A DNA stretch of 64,000 nucleotides from positions 18,836 through 82,835 of the IMG/VR virus record IMGVR_UViG_3300033067_002106. One strand, given 5' to 3'. A program made the translations under genes and the position numbers. This stretch comes from a virus. Lineage: Duplodnaviria; Caudoviricetes. The notes below the pieces were generated by a model. It was not told the origin of the DNA. It saw only the letters and a list, made by a program, of their open reading frames with translations, and did not search any database. Of the stretch, positions 11,966-63,966 are shown one piece after another; the first letter of the stretch is position 1; each line of letters opens with the position of its first letter.

Positions 11966-12621
11966 GGTCTGGTTGACCGTCTTCTTATTTTGGTCATCGG
12001 CCATTTGGTGTGTTCATGAATAATTTCATACATTCTACTAACCGTTGCTGGCGTAGCTGTGCCCATAAACATCAGACTTTTTATCTTCTGCTTTTTGGCA
12101 ATCTTATTCAACACATGGTGTAAACGTTGAGCGTCTTCTTTACATTTACACACGACCATATCAAATTGGTCTTCGTTATAAATGACGAGTTTATTATGTA
12201 CAACAATGACTTGTTTTACCATTTTAGCTTTATATGCCCCGGAAACAAGACGCTTAACAACCTCATTTATTGTTGGTCTATTGGCTTTTGAATTTAAACC
12301 AAATATCCAAAATGTCTCCTCTAATTGGTAATCACTTGAAGCCAAAATTGTCCAATCCCCAATAGGTTTTTCAACATATGTCTTCCCATAATCATCCCTT
12401 ATTGTTCTAAATGTATCGGTTGGTTCTGTTGGTTTTATCACACAAATTTTATATTTTACTGGTTTGATTTTCAATGTGTTAACAAATTTTTTTGGAAATT
12501 TGATTTGTTTATTTTTTTCAATAAGATTGTGGTAATTAATAAATGATGTTTCCTTTGTTTTACAGGTGTGTAAGGTTTTTTTATATTTCCCGTTATATGT
12601 TAAAATTACTCTATAAATCAT
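11962..12621 (-). CDS. Hypothetical protein
   Basis: 219-aa ORF. Confidence 0.75.
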   Translation of the reverse strand: MIYRVILTYNGKYKKTLHTCKTKETSFINYHNLIEKNKQIKFPKKFVNTLKIKPVKYKICVIKPTEPTDTFRTIRDDYGKTYVEKPIGDWTILASSDYQLEETFWIFGLNSKANRPTINEVVKRLVSGAYKAKMVKQVIVVHNKLVIYNEDQFDMVVCKCKEDAQRLHHVLNKIAKKQKIKSLMFMGTATPATVSRMYEIIHEHTKWPMTKIRRRSTRP

Positions 12622-12671
12622 TTTTGGTTTTGTTTAATAATTTACGTATATTTGTAGCAAAATAAAGTGAA

Positions 12672-13715
12672 ATGAGTAAAAGAGATTTCTATGATGTTCT
12701 CGGTGTAGCCAAAACCGCAACTCAAGCTGAAATAAAAAAAGCTTACAGGTCATTGGTTAAAACACATCATCCAGATAAGGGAGGTGATGAAACCGCTTTT
12801 AAAGAAATAGCCGAAGCATATGAGGTGTTGTCTGATGAAAAAAAACGCAAAGATTATGATACCTTTGGTCATACCAAACCTTCTCAATTTGGCGGTGGAT
12901 ATGACCCGATGGATGATTTTTTACGAAAAGCGGGTTTTGATACATTTAGAACAGCAAAGCAGCCAGAAATTAAAAAGGGACCAAACCTTCATATGACGGT
13001 TAAACTTACCCTTGAAGAAATATTCAATGGAACAACTAAAAAAATCAAATACAGAAGGAATGTTATGTGCGCAACGTGTTTAGGTAAGGGTGGAACCGGT
13101 GTCAAAGATTGTGGCACATGTTCAGGCCATGGATTTGTCACACAAGTAAGACAAACAAATTTTGGACAGTTCAGACATACAATTAATTGTCCTACTTGTA
13201 ACGGTGAAGGTTCATCATATGAAACAGAGTGTAATACATGTAAGGGCCATGGTGTTAATCTGGAAGAAGACATCAATGAAATTAGCATTCCACATGGTGT
13301 TCTTGATAATATGACAATGTTTTTAGAAGGAAAGGGCCATGCGATTAAAAACGGTATCTCTGGGGATATGCTTATTACAATAATGGAGCTTCCACATGAT
13401 TTATATGTAAGAAACGGTAATGACCTTCGATTTAATCTTAAGCTGACATACCCTCAATTAATTCTTGGTGATAAAGTCGAGATACCAACAATTGAAGGAA
13501 CAAAAATAAGAGTAAATATTGCTGAATATACAAAGGTTGGGGAGACATTAAGAGTTTTGGGAAAGGGAATGAAGGTAATGGAAACAGAAAGTAGGGGTGA
13601 CTTGTTATTGGTTACAGATTTAAAGGTCCCTGAGAAATTAACAGCCAATGAATTGAACCTTATCAAAGAATTAAAAAAACTTGAGACCAAAGTTGCAACT
13701 CAAGAAAGTAATTAG
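12672..13715 (+). CDS. dnaJ: Chaperone DnaJ
   Basis: J domain with HPD; four CxxCxGxG repeats; C-terminal domain. Confidence 0.95.
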
Positions 13716-13743
13716 TATATTTGCAGTATAAAAATCCGTAACC

Positions 13744-14169
13744 ATGGCAAAATTCGAAGAAGTTTTTGAGGACACACAGGCCTTATTCACAAATTTTATC
13801 TCAGACATAGACAATTTAAGAGAGGTAAATATTAAAATCCTTGCAAGTAAAAATCTTAAAGAAATAGGCAAGGTGGTCAAAGCAAATGATTTGCTTAAAT
13901 TTATGACCAAAGAAGATATCATCATCCTTTTAAATGAAACAATTTTTGAACAACTTGATGATGAACAAAAAATGATGGTTGTTGAAGAATTACTTGCTGC
14001 AATATACTTTGATGCTGAAAAAAGCAAGGTTAGTATCATTAAGCCAGACATCAATACATTCTCATTATTGCTTCGCAAATATGGGTATGAAAAGTATGAA
14101 ACCTTACACGAATCAGTTAAGGCACTTTTTGCACAAGCAGATGAAGAAGCAGCTGAAAACAATCTGTAA
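13744..14169 (+). CDS. Phage metallopeptidase-like protein (HE motif apparently degenerate)
   Basis: DIIILLNE...EELLAAI...IIKPDINTF pattern. Confidence 0.45.
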   Translation: MAKFEEVFEDTQALFTNFISDIDNLREVNIKILASKNLKEIGKVVKANDLLKFMTKEDIIILLNETIFEQLDDEQKMMVVEELLAAIYFDAEKSKVSIIKPDINTFSLLLRKYGYEKYETLHESVKALFAQADEEAAENNL

Positions 14170-14420
14170 TGACACCAAGTGAAGTAGCAGAGTTTAATCC
14201 AGAAGCGTATATATGCGATGGATTTGATGAAGCTTTGATAGGAATTGCCGAACGAATAAATCTCGGCCCAGTTGCGGCATATTCCGTTGAAAAAATTATT
14301 GATATTCTTGTTTTGAGAGATGGAATGTCATACGATGATGCAAGAGAATATTTTGAGTTTAATATTCTAGATGCTTGGGTTGGAGAAAACACACCAGTAT
14401 TTATTACAATGACAACATAG
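14169..14420 (+). CDS. Conserved phage hypothetical protein
   Basis: DGFDEALIG...EYFEFNI..AWVGENTP. Confidence 0.75.
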   Translation: MTPSEVAEFNPEAYICDGFDEALIGIAERINLGPVAAYSVEKIIDILVLRDGMSYDDAREYFEFNILDAWVGENTPVFITMTT

Positions 14421-14423
14421 TGT

Positions 14424-14636
14424 ATGTTAAGATTATTTAACTTCTTTAAGAAGAAGAAACAACCAAAAAATGAACCAATAATTCATGTTATTGGCGGAAA
14501 AGAATGTCCGATTTGCGGAGAATATGGACTTTTTAGTTATCACACAAAAGAAAAGGGCAAATATTATTTTTGTGAAGACTGTTTTAGAGAAATATCCAAC
14601 GCACAGTTTGAAAAATTAAAAAAAGAAAAGAAGTAA
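14424..14636 (+). CDS. Small zinc-finger protein
   Basis: CPIC...CEDC. Confidence 0.65.
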   Translation: MLRLFNFFKKKKQPKNEPIIHVIGGKECPICGEYGLFSYHTKEKGKYYFCEDCFREISNAQFEKLKKEKK

Positions 14637-14637
14637 T

Positions 14638-15348
14638 ATGGACCAGTACAACGAATTTAAAGATTATGCTGTAAAACACATGGGAATTTCATCATTAAAT
14701 TTTCATTATTGGGAACAAACTCAAAACAGACTTTATGGACCAAGTTCATCATTAACACCATATATTCTTGAAGAAAGAGAAATGCGTGTTACTCAAATGG
14801 ATATCTTTTCAAGAATGATGATGGACCGTATCATTTGGTTGGCTGGCCCAGTTAATGATATGATGAGTACTGTTGTTCAAGCTCAGCTTATGTTCTTGGA
14901 TAACTTAGAGGTTAAAGATATTACAATGCATGTTGATACACCGGGAGGTTCTGTTAAATCTGGTCTTTCAATGGTTGATGTAATGGATTATATTTCTTCA
15001 GATGTTATGACAATCAATACCGGTATGGCGGCTTCAATGGGTTCCATTCTTTTAGGTGCTGGTACAAAGGGAAAACGTTATAGCCTTCGCTTTAGTAAAG
15101 TGATGTTACATCAGGTTAGCAGTGGTGCAGAAGGCAATATTCAAGATATCAGAATTACACTTCAAGAAAGTGAAAAATATAACGAAATTCTTTTCGGGTT
15201 GTTGGGGAAATACACCAACAAAGACCCAAAACAAGTTCTAGACGATGCCAAACGTGATATGTGGTTAACAGCTGAAGAAGCAGTTAATTACGGAATTATT
15301 GATGGTATTGTACATAATAAAGTAAAAGTAAAACCAAAAATTCTATGA
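14638..15348 (+). CDS. clpP: ATP-dependent Clp protease proteolytic subunit
   Basis: DIFSRMMMDRII, TPGGSV, AASMGS, VMLHQ, RDMWLTAEEAVNYGIID. Confidence 0.95.
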   Translation: MDQYNEFKDYAVKHMGISSLNFHYWEQTQNRLYGPSSSLTPYILEEREMRVTQMDIFSRMMMDRIIWLAGPVNDMMSTVVQAQLMFLDNLEVKDITMHVDTPGGSVKSGLSMVDVMDYISSDVMTINTGMAASMGSILLGAGTKGKRYSLRFSKVMLHQVSSGAEGNIQDIRITLQESEKYNEILFGLLGKYTNKDPKQVLDDAKRDMWLTAEEAVNYGIIDGIVHNKVKVKPKIL

Positions 15349-15659
15349 ATTATTCAGAAAATGTAGGAAGACCTGTCTATTTGGGTGAAGAAAAAGCACC
15401 AAGTGGATTAGGAGTACCTAGAAACGATGAGGCCAGATTAGCAGACCAAACGCCAATTGCGACAGCAGAGATTAATTTACGACCAGTTAATATTGAACCA
15501 TTAAATTCTGGTTATGTGGTAAGGGTTGGGTGCCAAACAATAGCAGTTGAAACAACCGAAAAACTATTGGTATATCTCGGTGAGTACCTTAAAGACCCAG
15601 TCAAATTTCAAGCAAAATGGTTTTCTATCACGGATAGAAATAAATTGAATTTTATGTAA
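15345..15659 (+). CDS. Hypothetical protein
   Basis: 104-aa ORF, ATGA overlap. Confidence 0.7.
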   Translation: MNYSENVGRPVYLGEEKAPSGLGVPRNDEARLADQTPIATAEINLRPVNIEPLNSGYVVRVGCQTIAVETTEKLLVYLGEYLKDPVKFQAKWFSITDRNKLNFM

Positions 15660-15747
15660 TGTTTTTTATTAAAAATTGTATATTTATTCGAAATGTAGTA
15701 TATTTGTGCTACATTTCGGATACTTATATTAATAGTTCTTTTTTTAT

Positions 15748-16101
15748 GGGGGATTTACGGTATTGACTAGGTATAGTCGTAAATTGTAAGCATGTGGTGC
15801 TAAATGGATGCACCATAATCTGTCTATTAAAACACAAACGACAACGATTTTATCGTTTCAGAAAATTTCCTTGATGAAGCTGTTTACAGCTTCGCTGGAG
15901 AGCTTGCTGTAGCCTAATATAGCGATGGTGGTAAACCACCAAAAACATCTTTTTAGAGTGAGGATGTAAAAGAAACTCTGGGTTCATTTGGTTTCCAACA
16001 TTAAAACCAAAATATTTAGAAGGATTAGAAAATCCTGTTCTAAACATGTAGAAAGCTTTTGAAGAATACTTAACACAGCGGTTCGATTCCGCTATCCTCC
16101 A
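15748..16101 (+). ncRNA. ssrA: tmRNA; predicted tag (A)TNDNDFIVSENFLDEAVYSFAGELAVA at 15834-15917
   Basis: GGGGGAU...UUGAC 5' end; T arm gcgg-ttcgatt-ccgc; acceptor with G3-U; tag ORF ending LAVA-stop. Confidence 0.92.
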
Positions 16102-16148
16102 CGTTACTTTTTTGTACCTAGCACATATTTATATAGAAATGTATAGAT

Positions 16149-16763
16149 ATGCCTAGAAAACAAAAAACAATTCACTACCTTTATAAAACCACATGCTTGG
16201 TCACTGGTAGATATTATATCGGAATGCATAGTACATCTAACCTTGAAGATGGTTATTTAGGGAGTGGAAAAGTAATAAGACGTTCAATTCGGAAATATGG
16301 ACCGGAAAACCATAAAAAAGAGATATTAGAGTTCTTTGAGAGTAGAGAGTTATTAATTGAGGCTGAGAAGATGGTAATAACACCGGAGATGGTAGTTGAT
16401 AAAATGTGTATGAATTTGATACATGGAGGTATTGGTTGGATGTTATCCCATAACAAAGCCTTTAGCGAAAAACTTAAATTGGATGAAGAATTCAGATTAG
16501 ATTTTTCAAATAAAATATCAAATGCTCGGAAACGAGAATTAAAATTTAATCTTCGCCCAAACTTTAATTGTGATTGGACGGGTAAGAAACATTTAGAATC
16601 AACAATTATAAAGATGCGTGAAAAAAAACTTGGTACTGGAGTAAAAGAAGCAAATTCAAAATATGGAACTTGTTGGATTACGAATGGTGTTGAAAATAAA
16701 AAAATCAACTTAGTCGACCTTGATAACTATTCTAATTCAGAATGGTTTAGAGGTAGAACATAA
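16149..16763 (+). mobile_element. GIY-YIG homing endonuclease (MPRK family, copy 1)
   Basis: YLYKTT...YYIGMHST.NLEDGYLGSG; C-terminal basic DNA-binding motifs. Confidence 0.85.
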
Positions 16764-16823
16764 ACTCTCTTATCAAGATTCCAACCATTAACCACCTTAG
16801 GATTGGAACTAACGGCCCTCAGC

Positions 16824-16860
16824 AAATCGCTTTGTTGGGGGCTTAACTTTTTAAAAAAAA
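16824..16860 (+). terminator. Probable intrinsic terminator
   Basis: gccctcagcaa-atcgct-ttgttgggggc followed by T run. Confidence 0.6.
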
Positions 16861-16898
16861 ACGGAGCCGTGGCCCCGTTGATAATTTGTATAACTAAT

Positions 16899-17021
16899 TT
16901 ACTTACTTGGTCTTACTGTTGGTATAGTAACAGTTGTTTGAGTTGTTTGAGTAGTGTTAGTATTGGTAGTGGTAGTAGCGGGTGTTGCCGCTGTTGTACC
17001 CTTTTTGCATCCGCACCCCAT
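16899..17021 (-). CDS. 40-aa Thr-rich peptide MGCGCKKGTT...
   Basis: Not in ORF track; ATG at 17021, TAA at 16899; ATATTTAT motif upstream on minus strand. Confidence 0.6.
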   Translation of the reverse strand: MGCGCKKGTTAATPATTTTNTNTTQTTQTTVTIPTVRPSK

Positions 17022-17118
17022 AGGTTAAATTTTAATTTGATGTTATTATACTAATAAATATATCTGGAATCTTTATCTTTATCATAATTTTGATATATTG
17101 TAAGAAATTTACAATAAG

Positions 17119-17343
17119 ATGTTCAAAAGAAAATATTCAATAACAATTCTTGATGATAAATGGGAAAAATTAGTTCTTAATTATAATTTCACCCATATAC
17201 CAAGACGTGATGAGTTGATATTTTTGGATTCAATCGGGAAATATTATAAGGTTTTAAACGTTATTCATTATCTCACCAAAAAACAAGGTATTTTCATCAT
17301 TGTCAAGGAGTTCGAACATGAATTTCATCTAAACCCAAAATAA
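17119..17343 (+). CDS. Hypothetical protein
   Basis: 74-aa ORF. Confidence 0.65.
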   Translation: MFKRKYSITILDDKWEKLVLNYNFTHIPRRDELIFLDSIGKYYKVLNVIHYLTKKQGIFIIVKEFEHEFHLNPK

Positions 17344-17404
17344 TTTTGAAAAAAAAATCAAAAAAACTTGACACGAGCCAATTCTTTTCGTATCTTTGCA
17401 TATA

Positions 17405-17620
17405 TTTACTAAAAAGCTCTTAATTTACTGATACCCAAAAAAGTGGTTACGGCAACGTAAACAAAAACAATAAATGCTAAAGTAGGTATACCATCCTACT
17501 TGCTAGCCTTTTGCTAGTAAACAAAAAATGGTACTGTTATGGTGGCAGTATAAAATCAGCCCTTGTATCTGTTAGTCAAGTAAAATAAAGGCAAACCATC
17601 ACTTTGGGGTAACTTTTTAA
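17405..17620 (+). promoter_or_regulatory. Structured leader with amber-containing uORF (17474-17620; TAG at codons 4, 11, 34)
   Basis: Follows TTGACA/TAnnTTTG promoter; long-range helix about 17430-47/17594-611; internal hairpins. Confidence 0.45.
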
Positions 17621-17621
17621 A

Positions 17622-17680
17622 GGAATCATTACAGCAAATAAAATATTCTTGACTCAAAATTAAGACCAAAAAATGATTCC
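17622..17680 (+). ncRNA. CAGCAA-motif hairpin carrying an anticodon-arm mimic (CAA loop)
   Basis: ggaatcat/atgattcc stem; tacagcaa; tcttga-ctcaaaa-ttaaga. Confidence 0.45.
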
Positions 17681-17686
17681 GTATTT

Positions 17687-17752
17687 GCGTCCTTGGTGTA
17701 AGATAACACGGCTCCGCTGAGGAGTTAATCCAGTATCGAGTCTGGGGACGCA
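17687..17752 (+). pseudogene. Degenerate tRNA-like element
   Basis: gcgtcct/gggacgc acceptor; D arm present; 5-nt anticodon loop; 8-nt T loop. Confidence 0.55.
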
Positions 17753-17759
17753 CAAATAT

Positions 17760-17831
17760 TGCGAGGTAGAGCAGTAGTAGCTCGTGTGGCTCATAACCAT
17801 AAGGTCGGGGGTGCAAATCCCTCCCTCGCAA
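17760..17831 (+). tRNA. tRNA-Met(CAT), initiator-like
   Basis: Cloverleaf; ctCATaa loop; fMet-like D and T arms. Confidence 0.9.
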
Positions 17832-17886
17832 CATCATCAAAATAACGTCAGCGGAATTGGACTGCTGTTTATTATTGATAAAAAAT

Positions 17887-17970
17887 CGTGGGATGGTGTA
17901 ACGGCAACATGCTAGGCTCATAACCTAGAGACATCAAATGCAAGTGTAGGTTCGAGTCCTACTCCCGCAA
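17887..17970 (+). tRNA. tRNA-fMet(CAT) with long variable region
   Basis: C1:A72 mismatch; ctCATaa; 17-nt variable region. Confidence 0.85.
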
Positions 17971-18016
17971 CAAAGCAAAGGCCCTTAGGGGCCGTTTGCA
18001 TTTAAAAAAGAAATAT

Positions 18017-18697
18017 ATGAAAAAGAACATTACCCTAGAAATCAGAGATGCTGAAGGTGGCTCTGATGCAAAACTTCTGGTCTGTGATATGAGAGACATC
18101 TATATCAGAGCAGCAAAGAATAACGACTTCAACTGAAGGGTTCTCGAAGAACGAGATGGGTTTGTCAATATCTGACTCTCAGGCCCAAATGTCGAAAAAT
18201 TTTATCAAAACGAAATAGGTTCTCACAGGTGGCAAAGAGTTCCACCAACCGAAAAACGTGGTAGGGTTCATACCAGTACCATTACCGTTGCATTGCTTGA
18301 ACTTACCAATTATCAAAATATTGAGGTACCACAAAATGAACTTAAGGTTGAAACAACCAGAGGTACAGGTAATGGTGGACAACATAAAAATTCTACTGAT
18401 TCGTGTGTTGTAATGACCCATATACCAACAGGTATAAAGGTTGTGAGAGATGGTAGAAGTCAACTTACAAATAGGGAAGATGCATATAAAGAGATAAATC
18501 GTAGAGTAAATGAATATTATCGTACTGGTCAAATGTGTGAAGAATCTGAAATTCGAAAAGAACAAATCGGTGACGGTGCTAGAAGTGATAAACGAAGAAC
18601 CTATCGTGTTAGGGATGGAATAGTCGTAGACCACATTACAAATAAAATTGCAACAATAAAAGAAATTTTAAAGGGTAAGATTAATTTATTGTCATAA
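18017..18697 (+). CDS. RF1-like peptide chain release factor lacking domain 1, with two in-frame TGA (18134, 18173)
   Basis: One frame: LEIRDAEGG..., HRWQRVPPTEKRGRVHTSTITVA (PxT), GGQ, RRTY. Confidence 0.85.
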
Positions 18698-18732
18698 TCA
18701 AAAATTTTTCGTATCTTTGTTTAAAATATTTT

Positions 18733-19239
18733 ATGCAAAATGAGATTCGTCTTCTTATAATCGGACCAGCCAGACATGGTAAAGACACATTGGCGGAAAC
18801 AATGCGTGATAATTTTGGACTTAACTTTAAATCATCATCACAAGCTTGTTCAGATATCTTTATTTTTAATGAATTAAAAGATAAGTATGGTTATACAACA
18901 CCAGAAGAATGTTTTGAAGATAGATTGAATCATAGAGCTGAGTGGTATCAATTGATTTGTGGTTATAACGTAGATGATAAAGCCAGATTAGCCAAAGAAA
19001 TATTGAAAGATAACAACACATATGTTGGTATGAGAGATAAGGATGAAATCAAAGAATGTATGAATCAGAAATTATTTGATTTGATTATCTGGGTAGATGC
19101 CGAAGGAAGACTTCCAAACGAATCCTCGGAGTCATTTAATATCACCAAGGACCTTGCCGATATTATTATTGAAAATAATGGTACACCAGAAGAGTTTAAT
19201 AAAAAAATTATCAGATTGGGTAAATTTTTAAAAAAATAA
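18733..19239 (+). CDS. P-loop nucleotide kinase (dNMP kinase-like)
   Basis: GPARHGKDT P-loop. Confidence 0.65.
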   Translation: MQNEIRLLIIGPARHGKDTLAETMRDNFGLNFKSSSQACSDIFIFNELKDKYGYTTPEECFEDRLNHRAEWYQLICGYNVDDKARLAKEILKDNNTYVGMRDKDEIKECMNQKLFDLIIWVDAEGRLPNESSESFNITKDLADIIIENNGTPEEFNKKIIRLGKFLKK

Positions 19240-19274
19240 TTGACTTTTTTAGAAAATCTTAGTATATTTGTTCC

Positions 19275-19619
19275 ATGGAAAAATCGGTAATTGAAATATT
19301 AAAAAGAACCAATATCGTTGAAAATGACGAAATTGAAATTCAAAATCTGAAGAACATTGTGGTCAATTGGCCAACCGTTGAAATAAGGGACTCATTTGAT
19401 GATGAAGAAATTGAAGAAGAGGAAGTTGACCTTGAAAACTGGGAAATTATATCGATTTCGGATGAAAAACTAACAATGTGTGCTGGGGGTGATTGGCAGG
19501 AACCAACAATCTTTAGCTTGGTTCCTTATGACGAAAACTATTTGATGGCCACTAATATTCGTGATGGATATGAGGATGGAATGCATTATGATGACGTTTT
19601 GAAAATTTTAACAAATTAA
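19275..19619 (+). CDS. Hypothetical acidic protein
   Basis: 114-aa ORF after promoter. Confidence 0.7.
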   Translation: MEKSVIEILKRTNIVENDEIEIQNLKNIVVNWPTVEIRDSFDDEEIEEEEVDLENWEIISISDEKLTMCAGGDWQEPTIFSLVPYDENYLMATNIRDGYEDGMHYDDVLKILTN

Positions 19620-19662
19620 ATTTGGTTGTTCCAAAAATTCGCCATATCTTTGTTCTCTAATT

Positions 19663-19734
19663 GGCTCGGTGGTGTAACGACAACATTTAGGACTCTAAAT
19701 CCGAAAGATAAGGGTTTGAATCCCTTTCGAGTCT
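19663..19734 (+). tRNA. Amber suppressor tRNA (CTA), copy 1
   Basis: Cloverleaf; loop ctCTAaa; D-loop GG replaced by GA; one anticodon-stem mismatch. Confidence 0.8.
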
Positions 19735-19741
19735 CAAAACC

Positions 19742-19939
19742 TTGAAAATGAATATAAAAGAAGCGAAAAGTAAACTTTGGGAAGAATTAAAGGTGAGTGA
19801 TTTTGTTGTTGGAATATCCTGCGATGAGACAAAAATCGTGGTACATCTTTTAAACGGCAAATCAAAAAAATTGATACCCAAAGATTATGAGGGGCATAAG
19901 GTTACGACTAAAGTAACAGGTAGGATAACGCTTCAATAA
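19742..19939 (+). CDS. Hypothetical protein
   Basis: 65-aa ORF. Confidence 0.6.
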   Translation: MKMNIKEAKSKLWEELKVSDFVVGISCDETKIVVHLLNGKSKKLIPKDYEGHKVTTKVTGRITLQ

Positions 19940-22136: not shown

Positions 22137-22207
22137 GTGGGTGTAGCTTAAAGGTAAAGCGATGGTCTCTAAAACCATTGTTGACAGTTCGATTCTGTTC
22201 ATCCATA
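22137..22207 (+). tRNA. Amber suppressor tRNA (CTA), copy 2
   Basis: Full cloverleaf; atggt-ctCTAaa-accat. Confidence 0.88.
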
Positions 22208-22239
22208 CAGATACTGTGGGTTCGAATCCCGTATATCCA
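22208..22239 (+). pseudogene. tRNA 3'-half remnant
   Basis: gtggg-ttcgaat-cccgt T arm without a 5' half. Confidence 0.6.
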
Positions 22240-26297: not shown

Positions 26298-27461
26298 ATG
26301 AAAACGTTTATTAAAGAACAACTAAGAAGATTTATTTTAATGGAACAAAGGATTAAATATGATATGCATATTCCTGATGATATCTTAGCAATCAAAGACG
26401 TTTTTAAAAAGAACGGCTATAAGCTATATGTTGTTGGTGGAGCGGTTCGTGATGCTATCCTAGGCAAAACACCAAAAGACTTTGACCTAGCAACCGATGC
26501 TGTTCCAGACAAGGTTGAAGAAATAATGAAAAATGCTGGATTGAAAACCCTTCCAACCGGAAAAGCTTTTGGTGTAATAAATGTTTTTACAAATAAAGGT
26601 GAATATGAGATAGCTACCTTCCGTGAGGATAGCTCTACTGGTGATGGCCGTAGACCAGACTCAGTTAGCTTTACAAACATCGAGGGTGACGTTAAACGAC
26701 GAGATTTGACCATCAACGCCCTTTTCTATGATATAGATACACATGAGGTGGTTGACTTGGTTGGGGGCGTAAATGACCTTAAAAACGGTGTGGTGAGAAC
26801 CGTGGGAAGTCCAGAAGAAAGGTTCAACGAAGATAAGCTTAGGATTCTTAGGGCCATCAGATTTGCTGGTCGGTTTGGTTCTGGTTTGGACCCTGCTGTG
26901 GATGCCGCATTAATGAAAGATGCTAGCCTTCAAGGAATATCTGGTGAAAGAATCAGAGATGAATTCCTTAAGGGTATCAAATCATCCAAATCAGTTGTTC
27001 AATTTTTAAGACTTATCGATAAATACAACCTGTTTGACTGGATATTTAGGGGGTTAAAGGTTAATAAAGAATTTGTGGAAGACAAGGACCCAATCCTTGT
27101 AATAGCTAACCTATTGAAATTCAATGAATCTTCAGTACTCAACAAACAATTAAATGTTTATAAGTATACCATTGAAGAAATACGAGCTATTACATTCTTA
27201 ATCAATCTTTTAAAATTGAGTCCAGAAACAGCTGTTGCACTGAAGAGAGCCCAAAAGATTTCTGGTGTATCAGATGAACAAATTAGAAAGTTTGGCCATC
27301 AGGAAGGGTTGAATTCTAAGCTTTTAGAAGCTTTTTTGAAGTTTAGATTAACTGTAAATGGTGAACAACTCATGCAACAGCTTAATATGAAGCCGGGAAA
27401 GGAACTTGGTGATGCAATAAATAAGGCTGAATACGATAATTTTAAAAAATTGTTGGGGTAA
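26298..27461 (+). CDS. cca: tRNA nucleotidyltransferase (CCA-adding enzyme, class II)
   Basis: VGGAVRD...DFDLAT; RRDLTINAL; EDKLRILRAIRF. Confidence 0.85.
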   Translation: MKTFIKEQLRRFILMEQRIKYDMHIPDDILAIKDVFKKNGYKLYVVGGAVRDAILGKTPKDFDLATDAVPDKVEEIMKNAGLKTLPTGKAFGVINVFTNKGEYEIATFREDSSTGDGRRPDSVSFTNIEGDVKRRDLTINALFYDIDTHEVVDLVGGVNDLKNGVVRTVGSPEERFNEDKLRILRAIRFAGRFGSGLDPAVDAALMKDASLQGISGERIRDEFLKGIKSSKSVVQFLRLIDKYNLFDWIFRGLKVNKEFVEDKDPILVIANLLKFNESSVLNKQLNVYKYTIEEIRAITFLINLLKLSPETAVALKRAQKISGVSDEQIRKFGHQEGLNSKLLEAFLKFRLTVNGEQLMQQLNMKPGKELGDAINKAEYDNFKKLLG

Positions 27462-29611: not shown

Positions 29612-29697
29612 GGAGAGTTAAGGAAGGGAAGGTCCCTCGCTTGCTTGGAAAGCAAGAACCCATTAAGTTGGGCGGTTTTCGAATAGCCAGCTCTCCT
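29612..29697 (+). tRNA. tRNA-Ser(GGA) with 8/4 acceptor/T-stem fold
   Basis: ggagagtt/agctctcc 8 bp; ggtt/agcc 4 bp; ttGGAaa. Confidence 0.7.
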
Positions 29698-29875: not shown

Positions 29876-29966
29876 GGTGTGTGTGGTCCGAGTGGTCGAA
29901 GGAATCTGCCTGTGAAGCAGAATGAGATTATATCAAACGTCGTGGGTTCAAATCCCATCATGCACC
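29876..29966 (+). tRNA. tRNA-His(GTG) with 20-nt variable region
   Basis: G-1:C73; ctGTGaa. Confidence 0.75.
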
Positions 29967-30011
29967 CTTTAAGATGGTTGTGAGTATACTGTAATCAGAA
30001 ACTCTCAAATC

Positions 30012-30089
30012 GGTGTCGTAACCCCCCTGTCTGATACACAGGACAAAGGTAATTGGTGGGAGATATGGGTTCGAGCCCCATCGACACCA
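30012..30089 (+). tRNA. D-arm-less tRNA-Ile(GAT)-like
   Basis: Perfect acceptor, anticodon and T stems; no D stem; GTAATTGG in variable region. Confidence 0.65.
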
Positions 30090-30096
30090 CAGACAA

Positions 30097-30179
30097 CCTG
30101 ACGAGGCAGACTGGTTGATGCACCACCCTGATAAGGTGGGTTCGCAAGAACAAGGTGGGTTCGATTCTCACCGTCAGGA
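30097..30179 (+). tRNA. tRNA-Ile(GAT) with variable arm
   Basis: ctGATaa; gttc-gcaa-gaac arm. Confidence 0.8.
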
Positions 30180-30181
30180 CA

Positions 30182-30379
30182 ATGAAAATTGAAAAAGCAA
30201 TTGAGGTATTACATGATGTTGGTGTTGCTAAAAGTACAACATTAGAGATTATGTATGAATTATTAGAAAATGCAAATAAATATGCCAATAATTCAGAAGC
30301 AATCGAAAAGCTTTTAAAAGAAAAGCTTTCAATTGAAGAATTCATCTCGGTTAAAAATCAATTTATTTTGGACGCTTAG
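30182..30379 (+). CDS. Hypothetical protein
   Basis: 65-aa ORF; stop overlaps next tRNA. Confidence 0.55.
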   Translation: MKIEKAIEVLHDVGVAKSTTLEIMYELLENANKYANNSEAIEKLLKEKLSIEEFISVKNQFILDA

Positions 30380-30443
30380 CTCAGTTGGTTAGAGCAGCTG
30401 ACTCATAATCAGCGGGTCACTGGTTCGAACCCAGTAGTGTCCA
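30370..30443 (+). tRNA. tRNA-Ile2/Met(CAT)
   Basis: Cloverleaf; ctCATaa; Ile2-like context. Confidence 0.9.
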
Positions 30444-30444
30444 C

Positions 30445-30641
30445 GGGGATGGGGAGGTTAAATCTCGCTCGGACAAAACTGAGTAACCCTTAATCGGGGT
30501 TCGATTTTATCAAAGACCATCAAAGAGACCTGAAAAAAGAGTAACTAACACAACGGGATGTTGTTGTAGAAGAAAATTTTCTAACATTGGAGATGAAAAC
30601 TGGATAAATAGAATAAGCGGGTGAAATTCCCGTCGTCGCCA
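30445..30641 (+). ncRNA. Candidate 197-nt RNA with tRNA-like ends
   Basis: ggggatg/cgtcgcc (6 of 7 paired); gcggg-tgaaatt-cccgt T-like arm; flush between two tRNAs. Confidence 0.4.
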
Positions 30642-30646
30642 AACCT

Positions 30647-30737
30647 TGGGTAGTAGCAGCGGTGCCTTATACGCATCACACTTGTAACTGGCATCTTGAG
30701 ATAACTTCAAATGTGGGTTCGAACCCCATCTACCCAA
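30647..30737 (+). tRNA. D-arm-less tRNA-Ile(TAT)-like
   Basis: Acceptor, anticodon (ctTATac) and T stems; GTAACTGG in variable region. Confidence 0.65.
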
Positions 30738-30803
30738 CAATTGGAATCATATTCTTGTTGCCCCGTTTGGGATATGATATTGAAATTGAGTTACGGGGCC
30801 CTT

Positions 30804-30888
30804 GGATGGGTTGCTTTAGAGGCCGAAAAGTCTAGATTGTTAATCTAGTGTCGCAAGACCACCGTGGGTTCGACTCCCACCCCATCCT
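30804..30888 (+). tRNA. tRNA-Asn(GTT) with variable arm
   Basis: ttGTTaa; gtc-gcaa-gac arm; U73. Confidence 0.7.
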
Positions 30889-30895
30889 CAAATAT

Positions 30896-30969
30896 TCTGA
30901 TGTAGCTCAGTTGGTTAGAGCATCTGACTGTTAATCAGAGGGTCGTAGGTTCGAGTCCCACCATCAGAG
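30896..30969 (+). tRNA. tRNA-Asn(GTT)
   Basis: Canonical cloverleaf; G73. Confidence 0.92.
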
Positions 30970-30983
30970 CAAATAAATGTGTT

Positions 30984-31220
30984 ATGGAACTTAAAAGCAT
31001 TTCAAAAGAGGTTATCGATGAGTACAAAGAATTTATTCTTGAGCGATTAACTATCCGTCCAACTGATACTCCAACAGCTATTGCTAGCAGAGCATGGTAT
31101 CGTGGGTTTAAGGATTTCAGGTTTGATGATGCTAGGGCTTTGGCTGAGAAGGTTAAACAGATTTATTTGACACATATCAACAAGAAAACTATTTCTGAAG
31201 TTAGAGATATGATTTTTTAA
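30984..31220 (+). CDS. Hypothetical protein
   Basis: 78-aa ORF. Confidence 0.6.
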   Translation: MELKSISKEVIDEYKEFILERLTIRPTDTPTAIASRAWYRGFKDFRFDDARALAEKVKQIYLTHINKKTISEVRDMIF

Positions 31221-31221
31221 C

Positions 31222-31296
31222 GGACAATTAGCTATTAATTGGTAGAGCGAGTGGTTGTTAGCCACAGGGTTGTGGGTTCGAATCCTACATTGTCCG
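31222..31296 (+). tRNA. tRNA-Asn(GTT)
   Basis: Cloverleaf; ttGTTag. Confidence 0.8.
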
Positions 31297-31387
31297 CTTT
31301 TTTAGTTCTTTGAAATTATTTTTGTTTTAAAGTTTAAACTTTGGGTATAGTTTCGGTATTTATTAAATGATAACTTTCGTTTAATAA

Positions 31388-32461
31388 ATGCAACAAACAA
31401 TGCCACACAACACCAAGGTACTTTTTATCCTAAAAAGAAGACAAGATTATAATGGAGACAAACATTCACATGCTAATTTAAGCACTGGGTTATATAATTC
31501 AGCGGCTTTTATGAATGATATGTTAAATGAACAAGGTATTCGTTCTAAGATTGCTGTTGTTAGAGATAACAATGATATCGATAGACAAGTCACCAAGTTC
31601 AAACCAAAATATGTTATTATTGAAGCACTTTGGGTTGTTCCAAGTAAATTCAGTGTTTTATGTAAGCTACACCCTAATGTAAAATGGATTATTCGTTTAC
31701 ATAGTGAAATTCCATTCTTAGCAAATGAGGGAATAGCAATGGATTGGTTGGGTGATTATCCAGCTTTTCATAATCTTATTATAGCAGCAAACGCTCCGAG
31801 AGCATTAAAAGACCTTAGATTTTATTTAAAGACAAAGTATCATTGGAACGATGAAAAACTTGAGAAGAAAGTCATCTATCTTCCAAATTATTATCCAGAT
31901 ACTTACAAACGTAAGGAATTTGATGATACCAAATGTCACATTGACATTGGTTGTTTTGGTGCAATCAGACCAATGAAAAATCATTTAACTCAAGCAATTG
32001 CGGCAATAAAGTTTGCTGAATCTATTGGTAAAAAATTAAGATTTCATATCAATGCTGGAAGGATTGAACAAAAGGGTGATAGTGTATTGAATAATCTTAA
32101 AGCTTTATTTACACAATTAAAGTCTTCTGGTCATCAGTTGATTGACCATGGTTGGATGCCTAGGGAAGAATTCTTAAAGGTGTGTGGAAAAATGGATATT
32201 GGAATGCAAGTTTCAATGTCAGAAACCTTTAATATTGTTGGTGCTGATTTGATGGGCCAAGGTGTTCCTCTTGTCGGTTCAAATGAAATTCCTTGGATGT
32301 GTAAGTTTTTTACTGCTAAACCAACAGATACTGAAAGCATTTATAGAAAACTAAGATTAACTCATTGTTTTTCTAAAGTGAATGTTTTCTTAAATCAATT
32401 ATTCCTGAGAAAATATACAAATAAAACAAGGAAGATATGGGTTAAATACTTCGAAGATTAA
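31388..32461 (+). CDS. Probable GT-B glycosyltransferase
   Basis: IGCFGAIRPMKN; DIGMQVSMSETFNIVGAD..GQGVP. Confidence 0.6.
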   Translation: MQQTMPHNTKVLFILKRRQDYNGDKHSHANLSTGLYNSAAFMNDMLNEQGIRSKIAVVRDNNDIDRQVTKFKPKYVIIEALWVVPSKFSVLCKLHPNVKWIIRLHSEIPFLANEGIAMDWLGDYPAFHNLIIAANAPRALKDLRFYLKTKYHWNDEKLEKKVIYLPNYYPDTYKRKEFDDTKCHIDIGCFGAIRPMKNHLTQAIAAIKFAESIGKKLRFHINAGRIEQKGDSVLNNLKALFTQLKSSGHQLIDHGWMPREEFLKVCGKMDIGMQVSMSETFNIVGADLMGQGVPLVGSNEIPWMCKFFTAKPTDTESIYRKLRLTHCFSKVNVFLNQLFLRKYTNKTRKIWVKYFED

Positions 32462-32478
32462 ATTAAAACAAAGGTAAC

Positions 32479-32757
32479 ATGAAAAAAAGAAACAAATTAA
32501 CTATTAATATTACACAATGGAAAAATGGTGTGCTAGACGTATCTGATATTGAATGTGATTCACTAGATGAAGCAAAAGGATTTATCAGGGGTCTTAAGGG
32601 TAAAATGAAGGTTAAGGTTTATGATGGAAATAAAAGAGTTCAACATTCAGAGGACATAGATAATGAAGATAAACATGAACACCACGAACACCACGAACAT
32701 CATGGACATCATGAACACCATGGTCATCATGAGCATGATAACGATTCATATTGTTAA
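32479..32757 (+). CDS. Small protein with His-rich (HE/HG)n tail
   Basis: HEHHEHHEHHGHHEHHGHHEH. Confidence 0.7.
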   Translation: MKKRNKLTINITQWKNGVLDVSDIECDSLDEAKGFIRGLKGKMKVKVYDGNKRVQHSEDIDNEDKHEHHEHHEHHGHHEHHGHHEHDNDSYC

Positions 32758-32869
32758 TATTAGCTTTCTATTTTTCATTTAAATGCCGATGTATCCAAGT
32801 GGCCAAAGCTATATTTGGATAAAATTGGAGTGTATTTCCCTGTGACAATTAGCACAAACTAAAATACAT

Positions 32870-32939
32870 TGCATGAGTTATTGGAATACAGCCATCTCTC
32901 ATAAGGAAGGCCAAGGCGGTTCGACTCCGCTTCATGCAA
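32870..32939 (+). tRNA. Degenerate tRNA-Met(CAT)
   Basis: Good acceptor and T arm; weak D and anticodon stems. Confidence 0.55.
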
Positions 32940-32945
32940 CAACAA

Positions 32946-33024
32946 GCCGATGTAACCAGTTCTGTCTTCGAAACAGTTATCTGTAATGGAGTTGCAAATG
33001 TGGGTTCGAATCCCTCCATCGGTT
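32946..33024 (+). tRNA. D-arm-less tRNA-Arg(TCG)-like
   Basis: ctTCGaa; no D stem; GTAATGG in variable region. Confidence 0.65.
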
Positions 33025-33077
33025 CAACAACACTTATAGAGCCTCTCAATGATGCGCAACTTCTATAGGTTTTATTT

Positions 33078-33153
33078 GGCTTTATAGTTTAACTGGATAA
33101 AACACCTGATTGCGAATCAGGAGACGTGATGGGTTCGAATCCCTCTAAGGTCA
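33078..33153 (+). tRNA. tRNA-Arg(GCG)
   Basis: cctga-ttGCGaa-tcagg; bulged T stem. Confidence 0.8.
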
Positions 33154-33208
33154 CAAATTGTATTATGATTGTATTTTTAAAATATGAATGTGTTTATGTT
33201 GACCGACT

Positions 33209-33439
33209 ATGTGGGTCAACATCATACAACTTCGTGTAAACGAAAAGCAATCAAAAAAAATTGATAGAAGCAAGGTTGAGAAACATAGAAAACACCTTGA
33301 AATGGGCGGTGACATGTTTCCAATCGACGTTGTAAAAATCAATGAAGAAGAACACTGTATTTGCGGCAATGGCAGACACCGTTACTATGGTGCGTTGGAA
33401 GCCGGTGTTCAATTTATTGATGTCAATGTACTGAATTAA
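33209..33439 (+). CDS. ParB-like small protein
   Basis: PIDV...GNGRHRYYGA. Confidence 0.5.
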   Translation: MWVNIIQLRVNEKQSKKIDRSKVEKHRKHLEMGGDMFPIDVVKINEEEHCICGNGRHRYYGALEAGVQFIDVNVLN

Positions 33440-33440
33440 T

Positions 33441-33518
33441 GGTCTCGTAGTGTAACAGGATAACATAGACGTTTCCTAAACGGCCAGAGTAAGGGTTCGA
33501 ATCCCTTCGAGACTACCA
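33441..33518 (+). tRNA. tRNA-Arg(CCT)
   Basis: Cloverleaf with encoded CCA. Confidence 0.88.
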
Positions 33519-33523
33519 AATAT

Positions 33524-33612
33524 GCCCCAGTAACCGAGTCGGCCTTCTAAGCTGTTAATCGTAATTGGAGTTGAGATTGTATCAAACGCAGGTTCGAATC
33601 CTGTCTGGGGTT
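33524..33612 (+). tRNA. D-arm-less tRNA-Arg(TCT)-like
   Basis: ctTCTaa; GTAATTGG plus TGAGATTGTATCAAAC in variable region. Confidence 0.65.
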
Positions 33613-33618
33613 CAAGAT

Positions 33619-33694
33619 GGTTCCATAAGCTAACTGGATAAACTGGCCGCCTTCTAAGCGGCACTTATGGGTTCGAATCCCGTTGGAACTACCA
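33619..33694 (+). tRNA. tRNA-Arg(TCT)
   Basis: Cloverleaf with encoded CCA. Confidence 0.9.
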
Positions 33695-58243: not shown

Positions 58244-58327
58244 GTCTACGTGGTCGAGTGGTCGATGGCAGCGGTCTGCAAAACCGCAAGGGAAACCTCA
58301 TCGTTGGTTCAAATCCAACCGTAGATT
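58244..58327 (+). tRNA. tRNA-Cys(GCA) with long variable region
   Basis: ctGCAaa; U73. Confidence 0.8.
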
Positions 58328-58333
58328 CAAGAC

Positions 58334-59380: not shown

Positions 59381-59465
59381 GGGAACATAGCTCAGTGGTC
59401 AAGAGCACTGCCCTTACAAGGCAGCGGCGAATAGTATAACGGGTGTTCGATTCACCCTGTTCCCA
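59381..59465 (+). tRNA. tRNA-Val(TAC) with long variable region
   Basis: ctgcc-ctTACaa-ggcag. Confidence 0.82.
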
Positions 59466-59473
59466 CAATAAGT

Positions 59474-63829: not shown

Positions 63830-63917
63830 GGATATGGCGCATAGCGGTTGTTGCACCACCCTGTCACGGTGGTAAGTAGGTAAAACGAAAAAGCGGGTTC
63901 GATTCCCGTCATATCCG
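63830..63917 (+). tRNA. tRNA-Asp(GTC) with 20-nt variable region
   Basis: ccacc-ctGTCac-ggtgg; G73. Confidence 0.78.
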
Positions 63918-63966
63918 CCCTTGACTTTTTTGTACCTAGCACATATTTATATAGAAATGTATAGAT

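Follow-up and report, generated by a model that had tools for sequence, protein, structure and literature searches.

We analysed a 64,000-nucleotide stretch of phage DNA (the window), which covers bases 18836-82835 of the 82.8-kb IMG/VR virus sequence IMGVR_UViG_3300033067_002106. It contains four tRNA-like genes in which the D hairpin is missing and a D-loop-like string lies 3' of the anticodon arm. Judged by sequence comparison, these genes quite probably encode elongator tRNAs that function in translation and belong to a phage-borne family with a rewired chain order of the tRNA core. The completeness of the source record is estimated at 23%, and 82.8 kb at this completeness indicates a huge phage as its source. 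An earlier note, written from the window sequence alone, had described the four genes as D-arm-less, with the D-loop GG supplied from the 3' side. Our analysis supports this interpretation overall; the L-shape that the note proposed for the four RNAs is its more uncertain part.

The four genes form two classes, with a linker of 7 or 8 nt leading into the anticodon arm. Helix H denotes the pairing between linker bases that border the 5' side of the anticodon arm and the bases that immediately precede the UAAYUGG motif. Helix J, in the 8-nt class that includes genes 3 and 4, pairs U8-A9-A10-C11 with the G-U-U-G directly after GG-A. The parts of the genes, as assigned by sequence parse and covariance models (CMs), are as follows.

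Gene 1, 30012-30089, + strand, predicted rewired tRNA-Ile(GAU), 7-nt-linker class: acceptor 30012-30018/30082-30088; linker UAACCCC 30019-30025; anticodon arm 30026-30042, loop CUGAUAC; spacer and pairing bases 30043-30049; UAAUUGG-U 30050-30057 (motif 30050-30056); T arm 30065-30081; discriminator A 30089.
Gene 2, 30647-30737, + strand, predicted rewired tRNA-Ile(UAU), 7-nt linker: linker UAGCAGC 30654-30660; anticodon arm 30661-30677, loop CUUAUAC; pairing bases UUG 30682-30684; UAACUGG-C 30685-30692 (motif 30685-30691); inserted hairpin 30696-30710; T arm 30713-30729; discriminator A 30737.
Gene 3, 32946-33024, + strand, predicted rewired tRNA-Arg(UCG), 8-nt-linker class: linker UAACCAGU; anticodon arm 32961-32977, loop CUUCGAA; helix J, UAAC 32953-32956 with GUUG 32991-32994; helix H, CAG 32957-32959 with CUG 32981-32983; UAAUGG-A 32984-32990 (motif 32984-32989); AAAU connector; T arm 33000-33016.
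Gene 4, 33524-33612, + strand, predicted rewired tRNA-Arg(UCU), 8-nt-linker class: linker UAACCGAG; anticodon arm 33539-33555, loop CUUCUAA; helix J, UAAC 33531-33534 with GUUG 33570-33573; helix H, CGA 33535-33537 with UCG 33559-33561; UAAUUGG-A 33562-33569 (motif 33562-33568); mini-hairpin GAU-UGU-AUC 33575-33583; T arm 33588-33604.

The sequence parse reproduces the layout given in the earlier note for all four genes. Each has a 7-bp acceptor stem with 7/7 positions paired, a 5-bp anticodon stem whose 7-nt loop has U33 and A37, and a canonical T arm with a 5-bp stem and a UUCGANN loop. The outermost anticodon-stem position is a U.U in genes 3 and 4. A local D stem-loop, which would occupy the stretch from position 9 to the anticodon arm, is absent: genes 1 and 2 have only 7 nt there, and genes 3 and 4 only 8. 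The motif UAA(Y)UGG lies 3' of the anticodon arm at all four coordinates, as UAAUUGG, UAACUGG or UAAUGG within a stretch of 22-35 nt. The base following GG is A in genes 3 and 4, U in gene 1 and C in gene 2. CCA is not encoded after the discriminator in any of the four.

Three other readings of the inserts and the nested hairpin were rejected. A UUGA/UCAA hairpin in the inserts of these two genes (2 and 4) would compete with helix J in gene 4, and the gene 4 orthologue favours GAU-UGU-AUC. The insert does not hold the real anticodon arm, since the insert loops lack U33, and an intron is ruled out because excising the nested hairpin removes the anticodon arm.

The layout is not confined to the window. 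Relatives reached through the open reading frame (ORF) at 31388-32461 (L001-L016, 49-71% amino acid identity) have canonical tRNAs almost exclusively and lack family members, and the DNA pattern GTAAC-N24-28-GTAAYTGG-N6-30-GGTTCGA was therefore used to reach the family. In the viral collection this pattern matches 89 stretches, 72 of which show the full layout and represent 64 distinct sequences. The same pattern matches 90 stretches in 596 Gb of bacterial and archaeal genomes, with the layout in only 10. Six of these 10 cellular-genome members lie in loci with 13 to 22 tRNAs; some are on contigs of metagenome-assembled genomes, and two are on Bradyrhizobium scaffolds. Two CMs, R2 and R3, were made for the two linker classes, R3 from the 7-nt-linker alignment A5. 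Searches with them added divergent members outside the DNA pattern and brought the total to 92 distinct members. At E 1e-7 neither model has a match in four control loci, three of which (L003, L012 and L014) hold 23-28 canonical tRNAs each. CM searches of phage genomes, which the earlier note had proposed as a check, and the DNA pattern together find the layout in at least 92 distinct sequences. We conclude that the rewired tRNA family is essentially viral.

Members are also found in cultured phages, at sites that carry no tRNA annotation. The carriers are the Xanthomonas phages XacN1, Xoo-sp13, BUDD and X1, the Stenotrophomonas phages DLP_6, CM1 and RAS14, and further Rhizobium RHph_I1_18, Mesorhizobium Cp1R7A-A1, Microbacterium Zooman and Maribacter Panino. 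The carriers include a 77-kb Maribacter phage and the 385-kb XacN1. A BLAST search with gene 4 against cultured phages returned one metagenomic huge phage only; the cultured copies were obtained with other class representatives. The copies located in two of these phages are as follows.

XacN1, AP018399.1:47790-47866 and 366585-366661, unannotated: Arg-ACG with encoded CCA, one copy per terminal repeat.
RHph_I1_18, MN988519.1:15122-15199 and 87047-87125, unannotated: Arg-ACG and Arg-UCU.

At the first RHph_I1_18 site the locus tags skip from EVB91_036 to EVB91_034. The XacN1 paper lists Arg-TCT as the only Arg tRNA and a single 'pseudogene' with the anticodon TTC (PMC5852040), so that both Arg-ACG copies are unreported. 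The 'pseudogene' was considered as a rewired gene and is ruled out by its TTC anticodon. The hidden Arg-ACG complements the one annotated Arg-UCU of XacN1. The densest cluster seen, at 3900-5170 of L057 (IMGVR_UViG_3300046009_010115), has seven rewired genes in 1.3 kb, with the anticodons GAU, CAU (twice), UAU, UCG, ACG and one more, and it includes the closest relative of gene 2.

The secondary structure of the family is supported by covariation. Since a MAFFT alignment of all 64 pattern-derived sequences brought the linker classes out of register, we analysed the classes separately, as alignments A4 (24 sequences, 8-nt linker) and A5 (39 sequences, 7-nt linker), and added anchored parsing. 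In both alignments the acceptor, anticodon and T stems are 93-99% paired (acceptor pairs 97-99%, T-stem pairs 98-99%), with 159 double-change cells in A4 and 217 in A5. None of 500 shuffles reached the observed stem covariation, and slid-register controls dropped to 34-50% paired. For helix H, counted over all 92 members, we observe the following.

Helix H pair 1: paired in 92/92 (C-G 90, U-A 1, G-C 1).
Helix H pair 2: paired in 91/92 (G-C 42, C-G 40, A-U 6, U-A 2, G.U 1).
Helix H pair 3: paired in 37/92 (mismatches mainly C.A, A.C and A.A).

Pair 2 has the highest mutual information among the 496 column pairs tested (1.19 bits). The covariation between linker and variable region that the earlier note had seen in four genes is thus not lost in the larger alignment, a loss that the note had named as refuting its reading. 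The individual helices it had named are present, CGA/UCG, CAG/CUG and CAG/UUG in full and its partial CCC/AGG as CC/GG, and their first two pairs hold family-wide; the third pair is often a mismatch. An extra pair lengthens the anticodon stem in both classes. In the 8-nt class it joins the last linker base to the first base after the stem (A4: G.U 12, A-U 4, C-G 1, U.G 1, unpaired 6), and in the 7-nt class it joins columns 14 and 33 (A5: C-G 24, G-C 6, unpaired 9). Two other pairings considered for the 7-nt class, column 14 with 32 and column 13 with 34, occur in only 3/39 and 12/39 sequences and were discarded.

Helix J adds a second element to the 8-nt class. Its cells are paired in 144/156 cases, compared with 37/156 and 65/153 in shifted registers. 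The A10-U pair changes to G10-C in five members, and C11-G changes to U11-A in one or two. In the 7-nt class, to which genes 1 and 2 belong, helix J is weak or absent. The term 'D-arm-less' used by the earlier note is accordingly correct for all four genes as far as a local D hairpin is concerned, and imprecise for genes 3 and 4, which have the additional UAAC/GUUG helix. From these pairings the 8-nt class would have the order acceptor, then J enclosing both H with the anticodon arm and UAAYUGGA, then connector and T arm. The anticodon arm of this class thus appears nested inside a D-stem-like helix. The connector is AAAAU in most members, and its 5 nt equal the length of a variable loop. Inserts such as the mini-hairpin of gene 4 fall into this connector, which is the site of the long arm in class II tRNAs.

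Orthologues of the window genes, in a complete 360-kb phage and in L057, share 65-78% identity with them and show compensatory changes in the acceptor stem, in H and in J. Gene 1 and its orthologue in L203 are 76% identical, with compensatory acceptor changes. The orthologues of gene 2 (L057:4368-4457 and L209) keep the hairpin, and their helix changes from CAG/UUG to CGU/ACG and CGA/UCG. The orthologue of gene 4 (L061:679-767) keeps the mini-hairpin, with helix J changed to UAGC/GCUG.

ARAGORN calls none of the four window genes and 4/60 elsewhere (about 1 in 15). With the Rfam tRNA model, gene 1 reaches 35.4 bits, gene 3 30.7 bits and gene 4 28.5 bits at a gathering threshold of 29, and gene 2 has no match; the canonical tRNAs of the window score 45-71 bits. 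When gene 1 is aligned to the Rfam model, 4 nt stand in for the 15 positions of the D arm, and the variable region gains 19 nt. A model built from genes 3 and 4 only (R1) recovers gene 2 at 38.6 bits and gene 1 at 35.0 bits, and finds no further element of the four-gene layout in the 64-kb window. R2 scores gene 3 at 83.2 bits and gene 4 at 77.8 bits. R3 scores gene 1, itself part of A5, at 78.4 bits; with gene 1 as its sole input from the window, it scores genes 3, 2 and 4 at 54.0, 42.8 and 42.7 bits. Minimum free energy folds of single sequences miss the tRNA-like fold and do not outperform shuffles (z -0.9 to -1.9); thermodynamic folding by itself gives no information on the four window genes.

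The amino-acid identity of the family is narrow. By anticodon, 80 of the 92 members are Arg (ACG 37, UCU 28, UCG 12, CCU 2, GCG 1), 9 are Ile (GAU 7, UAU 2) and 3 have CAU. The earlier note had taken UAAYUGG for a D-loop-like motif, and it behaves as such in the base that follows GG, which is A in all Arg members (80/80), a pyrimidine in the Ile members (U or C, 9/9) and U in those with CAU (3/3). All 12 Ile and CAU members have A as discriminator. In 88/92 members the T stem is directly preceded by a U, a possible partner for an A15-like base. The T loop is UUCGANN in 90/92 members. In the anticodon loops U33 and a purine at 37 are kept, and 31/37 ACG members have the loop CUACGAA, which we take to be the same loop as in E. 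coli tRNA-Arg(ACG). Synthetases for Arg, Ile and the CAU class all belong to class Ia, and D-loop bases contribute to the identity of Arg as well as of Ile. We regard this link to the Arg, Ile and CAU restriction as a lead and not as a result. Bacterial Arg identity is mainly carried by A20 together with C35 and U/G36, and Ile identity includes A73 and U20 (PMC9976931). The A after GG in Arg members matches the ArgRS (arginyl-tRNA synthetase) determinant A20, and the Ile and CAU members match the A73/U20 set.

The genomic context of the family is gene-like. CCA is encoded after the discriminator in 44/64 pattern-derived members. At the 60 loci examined, the genes are embedded in tRNA arrays, frequently with a spacing of 3-15 nt to the neighbouring tRNA, and a canonical tRNA with the same anticodon occurs in only 3/60 loci. 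ArgRS (PF00750) was not found in five complete member-carrying phage genomes; the same family was matched in 14/14 control genomes. Without an ArgRS of their own, these five phages would have to rely on host enzymes to charge the Arg members. In the window the four genes sit in an array ordered in blocks by amino acid. The window phage uses the codons AGA, AUA and CGA at 21.3, 19.1 and 4.1 per 1000 codons. It also encodes its own CCA-adding enzyme:

CCA-adding enzyme gene, 26298-27461, + strand, PF01743 (E 6e-40) and PF12627.

The preferred reading, working elongator tRNAs with a rewired core, would operate as follows. The 5' linker (U8 A9 A10 and onwards) would lead straight into the short helix H of 2-3 bp. 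The partner strand of H comes 3' of the anticodon arm, so that H would enclose and extend the anticodon stem. The D-loop-like string U-A-A-Y-U-G-G-(A or U) would follow, and then a short connector and the normal T arm. Docking of GG on the T loop may give the RNA a tRNA-like shape. One way to read H is as a D stem with its strands swapped in chain order, in which U8, the A14/A15-like bases, GG and the U48-like base would keep their canonical partners. The transcripts would be processed out of the array and CCA would be added where it is not encoded. Arg members would be charged by host ArgRS through the A20-like base, C35 and U/G36, and Ile members by host IleRS (isoleucyl-tRNA synthetase) through A73, the U20-like base and the anticodon. 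The tRNAs would then decode AGA, CGA, AUA and AUY, which the window phage uses heavily.

Why such a design would be maintained is a more tentative matter. Our guess, held with low confidence, is that it is kept to escape host factors for which the canonical D arm is a target or a recognition site. A wider version of this idea is that ordinary bacterial RNase P, CCA-adding enzyme, ArgRS and IleRS, EF-Tu and ribosomes accept the different chain order, and that phages have kept it across bacterial phyla because it hides their Arg and Ile tRNAs from host factors, for example nucleases or toxins, that recognise the canonical geometry of D arm and anticodon arm. We hold this version possible and on the whole rather doubtful.

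Several points weigh against working elongator tRNAs with a rewired core. Canonical tRNAs with the same anticodons are present in the window array for two of the four genes (Ile-GAU at 30097; Arg-UCU at 33619 and 37808), so that genes 1 (Ile-GAU) and 4 (Arg-UCU) are not strictly needed there. Pair 3 of helix H is mismatched in 55/92 members, which leaves a very short helix. If all four J pairs formed and stacked on H, GG may come to lie too far from the T loop. By this rough geometric argument, which is ours and was not computed, either only the two covarying J pairs form or the 8-nt class has a different overall shape. Finally, a 2024 paper describes all known bacterial tRNAs as canonical cloverleaves (PMC11551756).

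The alternative that survives best is that the RNAs are decoys or sponges with no role in translation, whose Arg and Ile anticodon loops are exposed to anticodon nucleases or tRNA-modifying toxins of the host. Work on T5/PARIS and on retron-Eco7 reportedly shows that phage tRNAs counter host tRNA-cleaving defences, two window genes adjoin canonical tRNAs of the same anticodon, and the restriction to Arg and Ile would suit a nuclease of narrow specificity. A decoy, however, would need an anticodon stem-loop alone, yet the family keeps the A20-like base, A73, the 7-bp acceptor, CCA in 44/64 and the canonical T loop, and these determinants are split by amino-acid class. In 57/60 loci there is also no nearby canonical tRNA of that anticodon to protect. 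The earlier note had raised decoys and leaned towards decoding; we share this preference on the grounds of identity nucleotides, CCA encoded with the gene, location inside tRNA arrays and complementary anticodons, and we consider decoys improbable.

Somewhat less probable still is that the genes encode tRNA-like RNAs with a non-translation role, as regulators, primers or ligands of phage proteins, which reuse tRNA processing signals. The core is indeed non-canonical, and the mini-hairpin GAU-UNU-AUC, which is common to gene 4, its orthologue and the variable arm of the tRNA-His at 29877, could bind a protein. Against such a role stand the retention of U33 and of the purine at 37, the CUACGAA loop in 31/37 ACG members and the tracking of synthetase determinants by anticodon class. 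That both a 77-kb Maribacter phage and the very different 385-kb XacN1 carry the family argues against dependence on a special phage partner. Decaying tRNA pseudogenes that lost the D arm, which the low Rfam scores (28-35 bits) and the missing ARAGORN calls might suggest, have next to no probability and are effectively refuted by covariation: every helix is kept by compensatory changes in 92 distinct members from unrelated phages, the window copies are 22-35% diverged from their orthologues with all stems intact, linker and UAAYUGG are conserved far beyond neutral expectation, and the divergent CM members outside the pattern argue against alignments that are an artefact of the search pattern.

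The window contains other unusual tRNA-like elements beside the four genes. ARAGORN finds 31 tRNAs in it, including two CUA suppressors, and one tmRNA (transfer-messenger RNA). The following elements stand out.

29612-29696, + strand: 85-nt tRNA-like element with no ARAGORN or Rfam call; perfect 7-bp acceptor, GGA (Ser) anticodon loop, long variable hairpin, very small D arm and an unusual T loop (UUUCGAAUA region).
32870-32938, + strand: 69-nt tRNA-like gene with anticodon CAU, 6 nt upstream of gene 3, with no ARAGORN or Rfam call; 7-bp acceptor, 14-nt unpaired D-replacement segment with UUAUUGGAAUA, 7-bp anticodon stem with one A.A mismatch, 4-nt variable loop and normal T arm.
22207-22239, + strand: orphan T arm and 3' acceptor-like segment (GUGGGUUCGAAUCCCGUAUAUCCA) directly after the CUA tRNA at 22137-22208; a 5' half is not evident, and the segment may be a tRNA remnant.

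The reduced D region of the CAU gene is of another kind than in the four genes described here. Seven tRNAs of normally class I type (Met, His, Ile, Asn, Cys, Val and Asp) are 84-91 nt long and have long variable arms (17887-17971, 29877-29967, 30097-30180, 30804-30889, 58244-58328, 59381-59466 and 63830-63919). A tRNA of normal length for that same amino acid often lies next to them. In the tRNA-His at 29877-29967 the variable arm contains the mini-hairpin GAU-UAU-AUC, shared with the insert of gene 4. XacN1 likewise has Lys, Thr, Cys, Asn and Gly tRNAs of 86-91 nt. A further arrangement is seen in L016 (IMGVR_UViG_3300045125_000071, 251 kb), where 12400-19900 contains about 20 tandem tRNA-like units. 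Their acceptor, D-side and T-arm sequences (GUCAGGUGGCGGAAUUGGUAGACGC ... CAGGUUCGAAUCCUGUCCUGAC) are near-identical and their interiors are highly variable, with lengths of 75-130 nt; ARAGORN calls two of these units, and the Rfam tRNA model scores the units at 22-44 bits.

The cloverleaf is treated as universal outside animal mitochondria. If the rewired genes are functional, bacterial translation tolerates a natural tRNA with a different chain order, and phage tRNAs are undercounted in annotations, even in XacN1, the published record holder for viral tRNA genes. The family would then also provide a natural scaffold for synthetic biology, maybe orthogonal to some tRNA-binding factors, and a lead that can be tested as to why phages encode Arg and Ile tRNAs of their own. 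Direct tests are possible, as cultured phage-host pairs exist (Xanthomonas XacN1, Rhizobium RHph_I1_18 and Maribacter Panino).

Full-text literature searches returned no description of phage tRNAs without a D hairpin, and a review that covers non-canonical tRNAs is silent on phages (PMC7609411). A 2023 screen reports a viral candidate RNA that sometimes overlaps ARAGORN tRNA-Arg calls (PMC10690425). This candidate, DNAVirus_2961, may be the rewired family. The rewired Arg/Ile tRNA family is apparently an unpublished, new structural form of a known molecule.

Compared with canonical class I tRNA-Arg and tRNA-Ile (RF00005), the family shares the 7-bp acceptor, the 5-bp T stem with UUCRANY loop, the 5-bp/7-nt anticodon arm, U8 and A9 after the acceptor, a Y48-like U before the T stem, the discriminator and CCA. 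Its A-A-Y-U-G-G-A/U string resembles D-loop positions 14-20, and it carries Arg and Ile identity nucleotides. Unlike canonical tRNAs, it lacks a local D hairpin, and both the D-loop-like string and the strand pairing with the 5' linker come after the anticodon arm. With the D-armless mitochondrial tRNA-Ser(AGY) of metazoans it shares the lack of a D hairpin and an anticodon helix that is effectively extended (PMC4013460, PMC9427863). These mitochondrial tRNAs are eroded, have no G18G19/T-loop elements and depend on co-evolved mitochondrial EF-Tu and SerRS (seryl-tRNA synthetase) (PMC4013460, PMC9427863). The phage family, in contrast, keeps GG and a canonical T loop, has covarying replacement helices, resides in phage genomes and apparently relies on ordinary bacterial enzymes. 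Allo-tRNAs, which metagenome mining has revealed in bacteria and phages, have 8/4 or 9/3 acceptor/T branches and keep the D arm (PMC5389517). The phage family is non-canonical like them, and unlike them it keeps the 7/5 arrangement and rewires the D region.

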